Source of the DNA: a virus | IMG/VR virus record: IMGVR_UViG_3300030202_002990 | Span: 1-64,000 of that record | Strand: one strand, 5' to 3' | DNA: 64,000 nucleotides | Part shown: positions 18,054 to 21,679 of the stretch, one piece after another | Layout of the letters: every line of letters begins with the position of its first letter | How positions within the stretch are numbered: position 1 is the stretch's first letter | Program-made: the position numbers and the translations under genes | Notes under the pieces: generated by a model | Told to the model about the DNA's origin: nothing | Database searches by the model: none | Seen by the model: the letters and a program-made list of their open reading frames with translations, nothing else

Positions 18054-18707
18054 TCATTTTTTACTACTGCTAACAAGATTATTGGATACTTGTGCACTTA
18101 ATAAAGTTTGAAGTGTGAAGTATAAAGATGGATTCCTTTTTAATAATTCTTTAAATTCTCTCTGTTTCCAAACTAAACACTCACATGGATGTTTGACTAT
18201 ACAAGTCGCAGTTGCTGATTTTTCTGTTAAAAATGACATCTCCCCTACAAACTGACCATCTTTTAATTCAGCTACTTTATTACCATCTACTGCAACATCT
18301 ATTGTTCCATTGTATATCAATACTAAATCTGGTACAAGGTGTGTTTGTCTTGTAACAAATTCACCAGGTTGAAATGTTTTCCAAATGGCAGCCTTACTAA
18401 TTTTTAAATATTCTACAGGTGTTAAATCTTTAAATAGGGTTTCATATAACTCATTGTTTTTATCGTCCATGTGGACAGGTCGTTTTTCATAGATAAGAAC
18501 TGCTATGTGGTATACATTTACGAGTACAAAAACAATATTCCAATTTATCGCCAACCACATTGGTTCAAGGGGGATGTAAAAATTATAAAATACAGAAAAT
18601 AAACTTGCTAGTATGGATAGGATTCTAAGGTATAAAATATCCTTTACTAAAAAAGAAAATGCTATTAGACCAAATGCCAGATGTCCTGCTATCGTTGCGA
18701 TATTCAT
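18054..18707 (-). CDS. Popeye-like membrane protein with cyclic-nucleotide-binding domain
   Basis: Three N-terminal TM helices (KDILYLRILSI, AINWNIVF); LYETLFKDLTP; cNMP motifs LIYNGTIDV, GQFVGEMSFL, ATATC. Confidence 0.85.
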   Translation of the reverse strand: MNIATIAGHLAFGLIAFSFLVKDILYLRILSILASLFSVFYNFYIPLEPMWLAINWNIVFVLVNVYHIAVLIYEKRPVHMDDKNNELYETLFKDLTPVEYLKISKAAIWKTFQPGEFVTRQTHLVPDLVLIYNGTIDVAVDGNKVAELKDGQFVGEMSFLTEKSATATCIVKHPCECLVWKQREFKELLKRNPSLYFTLQTLLSAQVSNNLVSSSKK

Positions 18708-18710
18708 ACA

Positions 18711-19127
18711 TTAAAACACATCTTCGGCCAATACATCATCTATTGCCGACTTGATTTCCTTATTACTTAAATCAAGTTCTCCGTCCATATCGGCTTTCCA
18801 TGTTTCCTTTTTAGAACCATCATAGAATAATGCCATTGATGGAAAGTTTCTAAATCTAAGTTTCTTAACAACCTTTGGTGCTTCTTCACTCTGTACTCTT
18901 AAAATTTCACAATCTTGATATCCACTAACACCTTTGATTAGTTTCTCATCAAATTCGGTTTCTTGCCATTCTGCTGTAAATACCACAACAACAATTCCAC
19001 CATTTATTTTTTCTTTAAAATTCTTATCGTTAACACCTTGACCAAATGTCATGGAGAAAAATAATATCAATCCTAACAAATTTCGCATAATGTAACTCCT
19101 ACTTGTCCTTTTTTCTCGCAACTTCAA
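18711..19127 (-). CDS. Exported thioredoxin-fold protein lacking CxxC
   Basis: Signal-like MRNLLGLILFFSMTFG (likely true start); NDKNFKEKI, VVVFTAEW, FRNFPSMALFYDG. Confidence 0.7.
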   Translation of the reverse strand: MKLREKRTSRSYIMRNLLGLILFFSMTFGQGVNDKNFKEKINGGIVVVVFTAEWQETEFDEKLIKGVSGYQDCEILRVQSEEAPKVVKKLRFRNFPSMALFYDGSKKETWKADMDGELDLSNKEIKSAIDDVLAEDVF

Positions 19128-19785
19128 CCCTTAAGTTAGCTACAAGTTTTTCTAAATCTTCAATTGCCTCTTCATACTCATCTATTATTTCATAGACGGC
19201 ATCCATATCTTCTTGTAAACCACCTACTTGTGATTTATATTGTTCATAAGAACGAGGCCAGTTATGTCCATCTGGTTTGGATGGATACTCATCACCAAAT
19301 ATAGATTCTATAGATGGTGGTTCAGGTAAATTTTTTGCTTCTTCTATTTCTGATAGTAACATATAGTAACCACCGACACCTGCTGCTATTACACTAACAA
19401 GTGCAATAATGGTCTGAATAGACATTGTAAACTTTGTACCCATAACTTTATCTTCCGAAAGTTCTATTGGTTCTTCTACTTTTGGTTCTTCTACTACAGG
19501 TTGTGGGGTAGGTTGAGCTACAACAGGCTTCGATTCAACTACTGGTTTTGGTATGGGTTCTTTGTGAATCTCTTCGTGCTTTTCTTCGTGTTTTTGGGTA
19601 TCCGAAGAGTGATTCATCATAGCATCGGTGATGTCCTCAAATGTGCAAACACCCATGTCTACAAGAATCTCACCAAGTGTACCTTTACGACCCTTGACTT
19701 GTTCTTGTAAGGCTTTACTTAGTTGTCGTTTTGTGATAACATCTGCATCACATAGCAACTGACCTAATTTAACCCCATCACTCAT
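19099..19785 (-). CDS. MshEN-like (GspE/PilB N-terminal) domain + Pro/Glu linker + TM + coiled coil
   Basis: KLGQLLCDADVITKRQLSKALQEQ...TLGEILVDMGV resembles the tandem MshEN motif; TM TIIALVSVIAAGVGGYYML; no ATPase domain. Confidence 0.75.
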   Translation of the reverse strand: MSDGVKLGQLLCDADVITKRQLSKALQEQVKGRKGTLGEILVDMGVCTFEDITDAMMNHSSDTQKHEEKHEEIHKEPIPKPVVESKPVVAQPTPQPVVEEPKVEEPIELSEDKVMGTKFTMSIQTIIALVSVIAAGVGGYYMLLSEIEEAKNLPEPPSIESIFGDEYPSKPDGHNWPRSYEQYKSQVGGLQEDMDAVYEIIDEYEEAIEDLEKLVANLRVEVARKKDK

Positions 19786-19788
19786 ATA

Positions 19789-20376
19789 TTATTCACCTGT
19801 ATAAAATGTTCCTTCAGGATCCATTCCGATTTCTATATTATCAAAAACCAATAATGCTATCTGTAATTCATCTCTATATGGATTGTAGAACTGACCATTG
19901 ACCACACCTGAGATTTTGTTATCTTTAACTTCTGTTATTTCTGCTTGACCAAAATTTGTATAATCAAAACTACCTATAATTTCTAAGTCTATTGTTTTAT
20001 CCCTATAAACGGTATCTTCAACTCCGTAATTTAAGTACAAACCTTCATCTATTAAATTATCATTATCCTCACCATCTTTATCATACCATATAGTAGCATA
20101 ATGTTCTAATTCAGGTAAAACTCTACCAACTTCCCTTTGAAAGTGAAAAACCAATAGTTTCTTTATCTTACCATCCTCACCAACTTGTTTACTTCCAAAA
20201 GTTGTTATTGAACCATAGTAAGTAAACGGGTCTATTGGGTCACCATTTACCCACATTTGCATAGAAGGTTCTATTGTTTCTTCTACTCGTGTGTCTTCAC
20301 AACTAATAGATAAAATTAAAATAATCCAAACCAATGGATTAAGGTACTTTTCTTTTATATCAAACCATTTTTTCAT
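19789..20376 (-). CDS. Putative lipoprotein
   Basis: Hydrophobic stretch ending in lipobox-like LSISC. Confidence 0.65.
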   Translation of the reverse strand: MKKWFDIKEKYLNPLVWIILILSISCEDTRVEETIEPSMQMWVNGDPIDPFTYYGSITTFGSKQVGEDGKIKKLLVFHFQREVGRVLPELEHYATIWYDKDGEDNDNLIDEGLYLNYGVEDTVYRDKTIDLEIIGSFDYTNFGQAEITEVKDNKISGVVNGQFYNPYRDELQIALLVFDNIEIGMDPEGTFYTGE

Positions 20377-20377
20377 T

Positions 20378-21679
20378 TTAAAACCCCATAAATTGATAAT
20401 TAATTCCTAATTTGATATCGTATGCTGGTCGTTCCCAATAATACAGATATCTACCTTCAGCAAATACTCCAAGATTATCTTTAACCTTTACACCGAATAT
20501 AGCTCCCATATCATAATCATTCCAATCCGCCCAATTGGGTTCAGAATATTCAAAATCATATGGTTCATATCCTTCATCTAAATGTTTTTTATATAGTGAA
20601 GCATTCTGATAAGAGTATTTGGTGTGTCCGTAATGAACAGGTAACCAATTACCCCAACCATGTATCCACCAATTATCTGCGTAATGGTAAAAATCCACAC
20701 CTATTATCAAGGATGTTTCACTCTGATATCCTAAATTCTTTTTCTTTCCATTTATATAAGTCTCTAACATCTGTGGAAAATGGTATATGAAATATTCTCT
20801 ATCTGTGTAGGCAAATATCTTACCATTGGCATCTCTCCACAACCAATCATGTCCCCAATATTCACCTTGACCATTCCAAAAAGGACCATCACCTTCAACC
20901 TTTACCCATTCACCATCTACAAGTTCTAACAACTCATCATGAGTCCAAATAGGATTACCATTTTCATCGTATCCCTCTAACATAGATTCATCATACCACA
21001 TATTGTCATCAACACCGAAGGCATCTTCTGCAAATGCCCACCATGAACCACGATACCAAGTCGTGTCCAATACCATAGCATCGAATCCATATACAGGATG
21101 TTGTCTATGTTTTAGACCTACACTAAAATGTAGTTTATCATTTAGTACTTCTGGTGTAAGGTGTAATCTTAAATCTCCGTGAATATAACTAATATCTTCT
21201 AATCCTAAATCAGTCATACCAACTTTAGCCATAGCCCAATCACCGATGTATCGTACCCAATATTCTTGATTGATATATTCGTTACCCCATTGTCTACCTT
21301 CAGACAATTTAAGTAAATATTCCCAACCTTTTACAGGTCCGAATGTAGCACTTTCGTTAGCATTCTGTTCTGAACCATCATACCAAGTCCCACCTTTACC
21401 AGCAGACTTAACACCTCTTTTTGGTTCGTATTGAAATCTACCAATCTTTCTCAGTCCAAATGATGATTGAAAATCAGGTTTTAAATCTCTCTCTGTCCTA
21501 TCCACCACCAAGTCGCCCGTGCTCAATCCACCAACGATAGCAAACCTATCATCTTGAAATCGTGGAGCATTTAAACTAAAACTAGCATATGCTGTTGAAT
21601 ATTTTAAAAATTTAAGTATTTCATTTTCAGCCAACAAAGATGAGGTTATAAGTAAACCTATTATAATTTTCTTTAACAT
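20378..21679 (-). CDS. Putative outer-membrane beta-barrel protein
   Basis: Signal peptide MLKKIIIGLLITSSLLA; alternating aromatic strands; C-terminal GVFAEGRYL...IKLGINYQFMGF. Confidence 0.65.
   Translation of the reverse strand: MLKKIIIGLLITSSLLAENEILKFLKYSTAYASFSLNAPRFQDDRFAIVGGLSTGDLVVDRTERDLKPDFQSSFGLRKIGRFQYEPKRGVKSAGKGGTWYDGSEQNANESATFGPVKGWEYLLKLSEGRQWGNEYINQEYWVRYIGDWAMAKVGMTDLGLEDISYIHGDLRLHLTPEVLNDKLHFSVGLKHRQHPVYGFDAMVLDTTWYRGSWWAFAEDAFGVDDNMWYDESMLEGYDENGNPIWTHDELLELVDGEWVKVEGDGPFWNGQGEYWGHDWLWRDANGKIFAYTDREYFIYHFPQMLETYINGKKKNLGYQSETSLIIGVDFYHYADNWWIHGWGNWLPVHYGHTKYSYQNASLYKKHLDEGYEPYDFEYSEPNWADWNDYDMGAIFGVKVKDNLGVFAEGRYLYYWERPAYDIKLGINYQFMGF

Follow-up and report, generated by a model that had tools for sequence, protein, structure and literature searches.

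The present analysis concerns five consecutive genes of an uncultured marine phage, located at positions 18,054 to 21,679 of a 64,000-nucleotide stretch (positions 1 to 64,000 of the IMG/VR virus record IMGVR_UViG_3300030202_002990, hereafter called the window). They encode an exported outer-membrane β-barrel (BB433), a lipoprotein (LIPO195), a protein with an MshE-related domain and one transmembrane (TM) segment (CC228), an exported thioredoxin-fold protein without the CxxC motif (TRX) and a Popeye-like protein with three TM segments and a cyclic-nucleotide-binding (CNB) domain (POP217). We found that the conserved core of this set is a trio, consisting of the barrel, the TM/periplasmic part of CC228 and the dead thioredoxin, and that the POP gene is a separate mobile gene outside this core. 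We suggest that the trio is a new envelope module of the lysis cassette, filling the slot of the spanins, and that POP217 is a holin/antiholin-like protein with a cyclic nucleotide monophosphate (cNMP) domain; we judge the chances for and against this reading to be about evenly balanced. As part of it, the five genes are proposed to form one late transcription unit, derived from two evolutionarily separate lysis-region cassettes.

The source is an 82,353-bp single-contig record with a CheckV completeness of 45%, and its minus strand carries almost all of the genes. Positions 18,054 to 21,679 are filled exactly by five consecutive minus-strand open reading frames (ORFs), and the gaps between them are, in order, 1, 3, 10 and 3 nt. 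The tight packing reported in an earlier note on this DNA, which had described one five-gene envelope-spanning module beside a holin, is thus real. Its domain calls (outer-membrane β-barrel, lipoprotein, MshE-related/TM protein, Cys-less thioredoxin fold, three-TM Popeye-like protein and holin neighbour) all hold at the family level, and the predicted locations of the proteins do cover the outer membrane, periplasm, inner membrane and cytoplasm. Its view of the five genes as a single unit was not supported by the comparison of loci.

The conserved trio and its lysis-gene neighbours

For the synteny analysis, 23 loci with the barrel and 80 of the 101 loci with POP were taken from IMG/VR, together with nine from genome contigs. 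The ORFs of all loci were clustered, and loci that shared at least half of their proteins were collapsed, leaving 85 of the 112. The loci were picked using these same genes and many are of shared ancestry; the counts below describe synteny and not independent events. All 23 non-redundant loci with 3.5 kb or more of DNA on the downstream side of the barrel contain CC and TRX, and 19 of the 23 also contain the lipoprotein cluster. The genes of the block keep their order with gaps of 0–10 nt.

More distant loci (L113–L120 and L126) were fetched with three distant barrel representatives, and their barrels are 27–30% identical to that of the window. These nine are the fetched loci with DNA on the side where the partner genes lie. 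In all nine, the barrel gene has two neighbours, one encoding a short homologue of CC and the other a TRX homologue lacking Cys. The distant CC homologue (94–103 aa) has its TM segment between a short N-terminus and a tail, and lacks the MshEN domain (hmmsearch E values from 4e-7 to 1e-14), while the TRX homologue was recognized with E values between 2e-4 and 2e-9. According to the alignment, the short form corresponds to residues ~105–228 of CC228, so that the long form is the short form plus an N-terminal extension. Neither the lipoprotein nor POP was found in any of the nine distant loci. The absence of the MshEN domain and the lipoprotein from all nine distant trios suggests that the second-messenger domains are lineage-specific additions. 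The conservation of the gene neighbourhood, which the earlier note had proposed as a check, is therefore seen for the core trio down to 27–30% barrel identity, but not for the MshEN domain, the lipoprotein and POP.

The next gene after the trio encodes an endolysin in eight of the nine distant loci, either overlapping or at a distance of no more than 31 nt. In L113 to L116, L119 and L120, it is a Peptidase_M15_3 protein (3e-20, 1.6e-19 and 4e-16) related to the phrog_894 endolysins (2.7e-27), and it is followed by a holin of the phrog_3427/GTA_holin_3TM type. In L117 and L118, an endolysin with PG_binding_1 and Amidase_2 domains stands beside the trio. With the lineage of the window, the trio is beside lysis genes in three gene orders and with three different lysis partners. 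In general, the endolysin is one gene among 60–200 in a phage, so the proximity of the trio to lysis genes is very unlikely to be due to chance, which is an argument by reasoning and not a computed probability. The connection with lysis, which the earlier note had drawn from the adjacent holin, is thus far stronger than adjacency alone, as the core genes lie inside the endolysin/holin cassettes of distant phages.

Some of the fetched loci carry further features. Directly upstream of the trio, L117 (4015–6999) and L118 (3925–6909) encode a 994-aa protein with a signal peptide and a C-terminal sorting domain of the type IX secretion system (Por_Secre_tail, 3.2e-13), which by its sequence points to a Bacteroidota host for that lineage. 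A 72-kb contig (L104) that is binned as a Candidatus Pelagibacter metagenome-assembled genome contains barrel, CC, TRX, g106 and POP (73% identical) genes in a phage-like order; this contig is probably of phage origin and was placed in a bacterial bin. A still more distant barrel was found on a short Tara contig (L127), alone among cellular-looking genes. Scans with P0182 of viral contigs, with P0164, and with P0131 of both viral and metagenome contigs, returned nothing.

In the window, the region upstream of the five genes is a baseplate and tail-fibre-like region, including a 661-aa protein that is a baseplate wedge subunit (phrog_219, 5.5e-17). Three minus-strand ORFs lie downstream. A very basic 53-aa ORF (17,859–18,020; cluster c24), whose translation is putative, overlaps the start of the holin gene and is conserved in 20 fetched loci. 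The holin itself (17,471–17,896) matches phrog_3427 (5e-27), and its match to Pfam GTA_holin_3TM (6.7e-4) is below the cut-off. It is followed by g106 (17,002–17,322), a holin-like protein with two TM segments and a weak match to the phrog_689 holins (6.5e-4). Very basic ORFs of 45–53 aa flank the phrog_3427 holin in the window lineage (c24) and, after the holin, in the distant loci L119 (4559–4696) and L120 (7854–7994); their relatedness, like their translation, is putative.

The earlier note had assigned the five genes a promoter motif of their own. A TTTATATTTA motif resembling a late promoter is indeed present on the minus strand at 21,714–21,723, 42 nt upstream of the barrel gene, and a second one is located at 18,034–18,043 of the same strand, between POP217 and the holin unit, but its count of two in the window equals the chance level (expected 1.5). 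The shorter TATATTTA occurs eight times in the genome, with four occurrences inside the 13% of intergenic DNA, and its sites in the window include 24,626–24,633, 21,714–21,721 and 18,034–18,041. Of 29 distinct relatives, 8 have TATATTTA in the 100 nt before the barrel gene, and it also precedes other operon-first genes, such as g222 (16/28) and the SLT endolysin (12/23). It was found in none of the 28–63 regions each upstream of the lipoprotein, CC, TRX and POP genes. By its distribution, TATATTTA is a candidate late promoter element. A scan for sigma-70 promoters and terminators gave counts at the level expected from shuffled sequence. As a lead toward a late sigma factor, a cluster representative matches phrog_234 (1.3e-7) and a 47%-identical gene is found at 43,281–43,961 of the window; this ORF itself had no PHROG match at 1e-4, and the late sigma factor is a lead only. 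Contigs from four marine RNA-seq runs (two studies) cover parts of all five genes and bridge the POP/TRX, TRX/CC and LIPO/BB junctions. They are mostly 90–95% alike, which indicates that they come from relatives of the phage, and as such libraries may contain DNA and a contig is not evidence of a transcript, they were not counted as proof of expression.

The proteins of the block

BB433 (433 aa; 20,378–21,679, minus strand) carries a signal peptide, and its AlphaFold model, made from an alignment of 29 sequences (mean predicted local distance difference test score, pLDDT, 73; predicted template-modelling score 0.68), has about 14 predicted strands and a large insert at residues 195–318. In VIA-align comparisons, the model resembles 12-stranded outer-membrane barrels, namely Tsx (Z 14.5 over 200 residues, root-mean-square deviation 3.9), KdgM (13.6), the EstA barrel (13.5) and NanC (13.0), and Foldseek matched FapF at 6e-7. 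The protein ends with ...NYQFMGF. Phe is the terminal residue in 14 of the 29 family members, and most of them close with a G[IL]NY-type strand. BB433 therefore shows the signal peptide, the barrel fold and the C-terminal aromatic signature of outer-membrane barrels. It has no family in Pfam, PHROG, NCBIfam or PADLOC, and none of the 29 members matched any Pfam family. A search of 1.8 billion representatives gave just 221 proteins at E ≤ 0.001, and the members looked up were all unnamed marine metagenome proteins. No match was obtained by tblastn with the window, L117 and L120 barrels against 50,697 GenBank phage records, a collection that perhaps lacks near relatives of the window, or by blastn of the whole region against GenBank phages. 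The barrel profile found nothing in four cellular genomes or in 401 sampled genomes of the phylum of locus L109, in a search that had no positive control.

CC228 (228 aa; 19,099–19,785, minus strand) consists of an MshE-related domain (residues 6–59), a Pro-rich linker, a TM segment (~119–143) and a conserved C-terminal domain. The first of these was recognized over residues 6–56 by the NCBIfam model NF053729 'c-di-GMP_motif, MshE-related' (E 1.7e-12, 46.9 bits, cut-off 38); Pfam gave no match to it at E ≤ 10. The profile of the CC family matches the N-domains of PilF (1.2e-9), PilB (4.5e-7) and MshE (1.7e-3). No close donor of the domain was found among longer proteins, PilB-like proteins included, which is weak evidence. 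The most conserved stretch of CC228 is an invariant EYPS.P.G.NWPRS.EQY..QVG.LQ block in the C-terminal domain. This domain is predicted to be periplasmic from the hydropathy and the usual locations of such domains. CC228 and all short CC forms have one TM segment, and the tail reads as helical; the orientation would follow from the same considerations. A complex prediction for the CC tail (145–228) with mature TRX scored 0.07 against a mark of 0.32, which speaks neither for nor against binding. CC228 and two short forms have no PHROG family, and hence no known spanin family.

The motif of the 53-residue MshEN domain, including a relaxed pattern, was defined by Wang et al. (2016; PMC5013675). 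Like the domains of the MshE, PilB and PilF ATPases and of NfrB described there, CC228 has tandem helical motifs of the RLG...L...L..Q type, but its domain is joined to a TM anchor and a periplasmic domain, and not to an ATPase or a glycosyltransferase. The relaxed pattern was matched by none of the 29 CC homologues. In the window, motif I agrees at 9 of 11 constrained positions, deviating by Cys at 7 and Asp at 10, and motif II at 8 of 11, deviating by Thr at 1, Cys at 12 and His at 24. In motif I, Lys replaces the Arg and Asp the turn Gly, and position 7 is Cys. The Arg of motif II is replaced by Thr, Ser or Ala in all but 2 of the 29 homologues, and the final Gln of this motif is often missing. 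The spacer between the motifs is six residues in all 29, instead of the canonical five. CC228 is accordingly a member of the MshEN-domain family by profile, and its binding of cyclic di-GMP (c-di-GMP) is only putative. Cys12 (motif I position 7) and Cys47 (motif II position 12) of CC228 stand where canonical MshEN has aliphatic residues; among the 29 homologues, the first is almost invariant and the second has no exception. They could possibly contact each other as a pair, bind a metal or be redox-active.

TRX was listed as an ORF of 138 aa (18,711–19,127, minus strand) with a TTG start at 19,127. The ATG at 19,088 is the start in 20 of the 27 aligned homologues, and we place the gene at 18,711–19,088. 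The protein has a signal peptide and matches the Pfam Thioredoxin family PF00085 (25.1 bits, cut-off 23.5; 1.8e-5); distant homologues match it at 5.7e-6 and 1.6e-3. None of the 28 homologues has a CxxC, and AEWQETE stands at that position in the window. Four distant homologues likewise lack it, as read from the alignment, and the Pro of the FPS loop is invariant. A periplasmic thioredoxin fold without CxxC that serves as a structural part of an envelope machine is known in TraF of the F plasmid. TRX resembles TraF in being a periplasmic thioredoxin fold without a redox motif, but differs in having no significant sequence relation to it and in its phage lysis context, which is not one of conjugation. 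One distant TRX homologue has a weak match, below the cut-off, to the Pfam family TrbC_Ftype (0.0069).

LIPO195 (195 aa; 19,789–20,376, minus strand) is a lipoprotein with the lipobox ...LSISC|EDT and a small up-and-down β-barrel (AlphaFold pLDDT 82.6). Its signal peptide ends in the lipobox Cys26, which follows a hydrophobic segment and is invariant in the 27 aligned homologues. It is the sole lipobox ORF found by a regular expression in the 82-kb record. Fold searches gave no clear relative, as the best Z was 7.3 (LpqH) and Foldseek returned nothing below 0.001. An Atlas search found viral clusters alone, the nearest named clusters being DUF6252 and DUF5025 at chance-level scores. LIPO195 has no PHROG family, and hence no spanin family.

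Other genes of the envelope are found around the block. Type IV pilin genes (cluster c9, two to four copies, recognized by the N-terminus of the encoded pilin), then c55 and c54, follow directly after TRX or POP in L011, L012, L015, L016, L020, L038, L040, L050 and L055. In the window, the pilin cassette was located by tblastn at 40,996–43,057, ~20 kb from the block, and a protein consisting of a stand-alone TonB C-terminal domain is encoded at 39,348–39,683 (Pfam TonB_C, 1.2e-10). It seems that these envelope genes are one island, which is split in the window. Small secreted or membrane proteins of clusters c45, c47 and c48 lie within or beside the block in relatives. Of these, the secreted Lys-rich peptide c47 and the two-TM protein c48 are encoded between or beside the barrel and the lipoprotein/CC genes in L012, L016, L022, L038, L040, L050 and L065, and c47 matches an island of the window at 38,213–38,906 on the plus strand. 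Some phages have cationic peptides that disrupt the outer membrane, and the position and polycationic character of c47 recall them.

POP217 and its neighbourhoods

POP217 (217 aa; 18,054–18,707, minus strand) has a CNB fold after three TM helices. It matches Pfam POPDC1-3 (PF04831; 2.6e-14, 54 bits, cut-off 28.1) and cNMP_binding (PF00027; 2.7e-14, 53.3 bits, cut-off 27.5). Conservation in the three TM segments equals that in the CNB domain. The phosphate-binding cassette is GEMSFLTEKSATAT, in which Gly-Glu is present. In the HMMER alignment to the CNB domains of protein kinase G, Ala165 of POP217 stands at the position of the canonical Arg, and a Lys that is at least 90% conserved in the POP homologues lies two residues ahead of it. 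POP217 is a member of the CNB family by profile, and its binding of a nucleotide is putative. The POPDC proteins of animals carry DSPE and FQVT motifs. Both are absent from POP217 on reading of its sequence. POP217 is like the Popeye proteins and the bacterial 3TM-cNMP family in its three N-terminal TM segments followed by a CNB fold, but it is phage-borne, operonic with lysis genes and has Ala at the canonical Arg position.

The POP gene is found in surroundings that change from phage to phage. POP proteins of 70–97% identity are encoded on more than 100 viral contigs, and the identity is 69–97% across contigs that have nothing else in common in their gene content. A POP gene lies within 1.5 kb after 19 of 27 CC–TRX pairs, while CC–TRX lies upstream in just 18 of the 38 POP loci with at least 3.5 kb of upstream DNA; POP is thus separable from the block. 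In the Atlas, the nearest clusters contain proteins of ~205–225 aa that are built in the same way; viral members predominate in the first one (Viruses 62%), and the clusters after it are bacterial. The bacterial homologues (32–44% identical; L105–L107) have ordinary cellular neighbours, which do not hint at a function. A tblastn search with POP against GenBank phages, a collection that perhaps does not include the near relatives, found no match.

In 47 of the 67 non-redundant POP loci, an endolysin or holin-type gene lies within two ORFs, namely the SLT endolysin in 28, g106 in 11, the holin in 5, the GH108 endolysin in 5 and a g106-like gene in 3. The other 20 loci have TRX in 12 cases and neither in 8. 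In the commonest arrangement, POP follows a TM-anchored SLT transglycosylase (Pfam SLT 3.2e-26; phrog_669 endolysin 8e-24), whose gene often has a promoter-like motif (12/23), and POP is then the only multi-TM protein within six genes. A further arrangement consists of g106, POP and then the GH108 endolysin (Pfam 2.8e-26; phrog_315 2e-49), and in several arrangements of other phages, the gene just before POP is g106 or its relative c57. POP always follows closely on the gene before it (median gap −1 nt), and a TATATTTA motif of its own was present in none of 63 cases.

The CNB part of POP217, and this part only, matches effectors of the PycTIR type in PADLOC (2.6e-11 and 1.9e-10) and a solved PycTIR chain (6e-5). 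POP217 does not conform to the Pycsar effectors, in which a CNB domain is fused to a TIR or TM effector next to a pyrimidine cyclase: it has no TIR domain, and the five records searched gave no match to the class III cyclase family (PF00211).

The lysis model and its rivals

Spanins break or fuse the outer membrane in other phages, and phages of diderm hosts keep them in the lysis cassette. In the model that we favour, BB433, the ancestral part of CC228 and the redox-dead TRX would form a complex that bridges the periplasm. Once the holin and endolysin have done their work, this complex would complete lysis by breaking the outer membrane or fusing it. The ancestral part of CC228 would be a bitopic inner-membrane protein whose TM segment follows a short N-terminus and leads into a helical tail in the periplasm. 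The present lineage would have added the lipocalin-like LIPO195, a degenerate cytoplasmic MshEN-type domain on the Pro-rich linker and, often, POP behind TRX. Through the MshEN-type domain, c-di-GMP or a PilB-type partner could modulate the outer-membrane step. POP217, presumably always co-transcribed behind an endolysin, the two-TM holin-like gene or, in the window, TRX, and with its CNB domain in the cytoplasm, would most likely regulate the timing of lysis in the manner of a holin or antiholin.

Kongari et al. (2018; PMC6139136) counted 91 phages of Gram-negative hosts that have no identifiable spanin, and asked about other routes of outer-membrane disruption. The short CC proteins of L113–L120 are like the two-component spanins, such as Rz/Rz1 of lambda, in that a putative inner-membrane protein, whose TM segment is near the N-terminus and whose tail is predicted to be helical and periplasmic, is encoded beside the endolysin and holin and would have an outer-membrane partner. 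Besides the eight distant loci with this position in a lysis cassette, the window has the holin directly downstream. However, the partner in the trio is an integral β-barrel of 357–433 aa and not a small Pro-rich lipoprotein, a third subunit, the periplasmic dead thioredoxin, is always present, and the genes are neither embedded nor overlapped. In the window, moreover, the lipoprotein gene precedes the inner-membrane gene, and the inner-membrane protein has a 110-residue cytoplasmic extension. Neither the CC forms nor LIPO195 gave a sequence match to the PHROG spanin families. With a barrel as the outer-membrane partner and a third periplasmic subunit, the trio does not belong to the spanin families, though it may do the job of a spanin. 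We also considered LIPO195 and CC228 as a classical spanin pair and rejected it, since LIPO195 is a folded barrel of ~170 residues that is encoded upstream of CC and has no PHROG spanin family. A lipobox scan beside the cassettes of L113, L117, L119 and L120 found no o-spanin-like ORF.

Several observations weigh against a role of the trio and POP217 in lysis. The window lineage has no adjacent endolysin, the SLT or GH108 genes of its relatives are at least 14 kb away, and an endolysin was not found in the window record, which is 45% complete. In L126, the trio has no recognizable endolysin or holin beside it. Just ~60–70 residues make up the periplasmic tail in the short CC form, and the insert of BB433, of roughly 125 residues, would face outwards by strand parity in the model, where a pure spanin analogue needs none. 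The holin label of g106 is weak (6.5e-4). The block abuts type IV pilin genes in relatives, which fits surface remodelling, and the shared ancestry of the loci means that the counts overstate the number of independent events.

The pilin genes lead to a different explanation, in which the block is an island for surface remodelling or superinfection exclusion that, together with the phage pilins and the TonB_C protein, masks receptors or blocks the assembly of type IV pili, with the membrane-tethered MshEN domain as a decoy for PilB-type ATPases or c-di-GMP. Two to four pilin genes stand directly after TRX or POP in at least nine relatives, the closest solved relatives of the CC N-domain are the N-domains of PilF and PilB, the phage encodes the stand-alone TonB_C domain, and the barrel has a large loop that is predicted to be surface-exposed. 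The distant trios, however, have no MshEN domain and no pilins in the fetched flanks and lie in endolysin/holin operons. Exclusion genes are usually early, whereas this unit is preceded by a late-type motif and has late structural and lysis genes around it. The failure to find a close PilB-like donor also argues, weakly, against a decoy, and we regard this explanation as unlikely. The barrel could instead be a substrate channel of the Tsx/KdgM/NanC kind with periplasmic helpers, that is, an auxiliary system for uptake or export, as its best fold matches are these small specific porins. The fold class is generic, however, with the autotransporter and FapF barrels scoring alike, and a strict linkage to a TM-anchored helical protein, a dead thioredoxin and endolysin and holin genes is unexpected for a porin. 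Moreover, no relative was found in the 401 genomes of the L109 phylum or, with three divergent queries, in the 50,697 phage records. We consider such a channel very unlikely.

The earlier note had proposed that all five proteins form one trans-envelope complex, coupling c-di-GMP (through MshEN) and cAMP or cGMP (through Popeye) to lysis timing, exclusion or transport. The tight packing behind one promoter-like motif in the window, the presence of POP directly after 19 of the 27 blocks and the scores of both domains above curated cut-offs are in its favour. On the other hand, POP occurs without the block in 20 of the 38 loci with sufficient upstream DNA and in several unrelated contexts, and the MshEN domain, lipoprotein and POP are all missing from the nine distant trios. 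The curated profiles do recognize both second-messenger domains, but both motifs deviate from the canonical ligand-contact residues: no CC homologue fits the relaxed MshEN pattern, the spacer is 6 and not 5, and in POP no Arg aligns at the canonical phosphate-binding position. As the earlier note had seen for the window, no cyclase came to light either: a search covering the GGDEF and class III cyclase (PF00211) domains was negative for the 82-kb record (estimated to be 45% complete) and for four larger relatives (70–79% complete). Such a five-protein complex is, in our estimate, distinctly improbable. For POP217 only, a membrane-tethered sponge or sensor for the cyclic nucleotides of host defence (cCMP/cUMP of Pycsar, or those of CBASS) would explain the matches of its CNB domain to the PycTIR-type effectors and the solved chain. 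These scores are no better than that of the generic cNMP_binding family (2.7e-14), the conserved TM segments are not needed by a sponge, and POP is consistently operonic with endolysin or holin-type genes; this role appears very doubtful to us. A more specific form of the lysis model, in which lysis is gated by second messengers, would have the cNMP domain on a 3-TM holin/antiholin and the MshEN-type domain on the inner-membrane subunit of a three-part spanin replacement, so that the timing of the burst follows the metabolic or surface-attached state of the host. We offer it as a tentative idea that is probably not correct in this form.

The arrangement in the window recalls the inside-out c-di-GMP systems of the envelope, such as Alg44-AlgK-AlgE, PelD-PelC-PelB and LapD-LapG. 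The likeness lies in the cytoplasmic receptor domain on an inner-membrane/periplasmic protein, the outer-membrane lipoprotein and the outer-membrane barrel; the window differs in having no synthase, adhesin or protease partner, in its receptor domain being a late addition and in its lysis-cassette context. Among the titles listed in a literature search, there was no paper on a phage MshEN-anchor protein, a lysis protein with a CNB domain or a lysis module of barrel and thioredoxin.

The four core families have no Pfam or PHROG names, except for the thioredoxin fold, and no GenBank phage isolate was matched in the searches made. In phages without recognizable spanins, how the outer membrane is breached is an open question, and the trio is a concrete and testable candidate for this step in abundant uncultured marine phages. 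If the model is true, lysis proteins with domains of the cNMP or c-di-GMP type would be, to our knowledge, the first hint that the timing of the burst reads the second messengers of the host, and this would have a bearing on models of viral lysis in the ocean.

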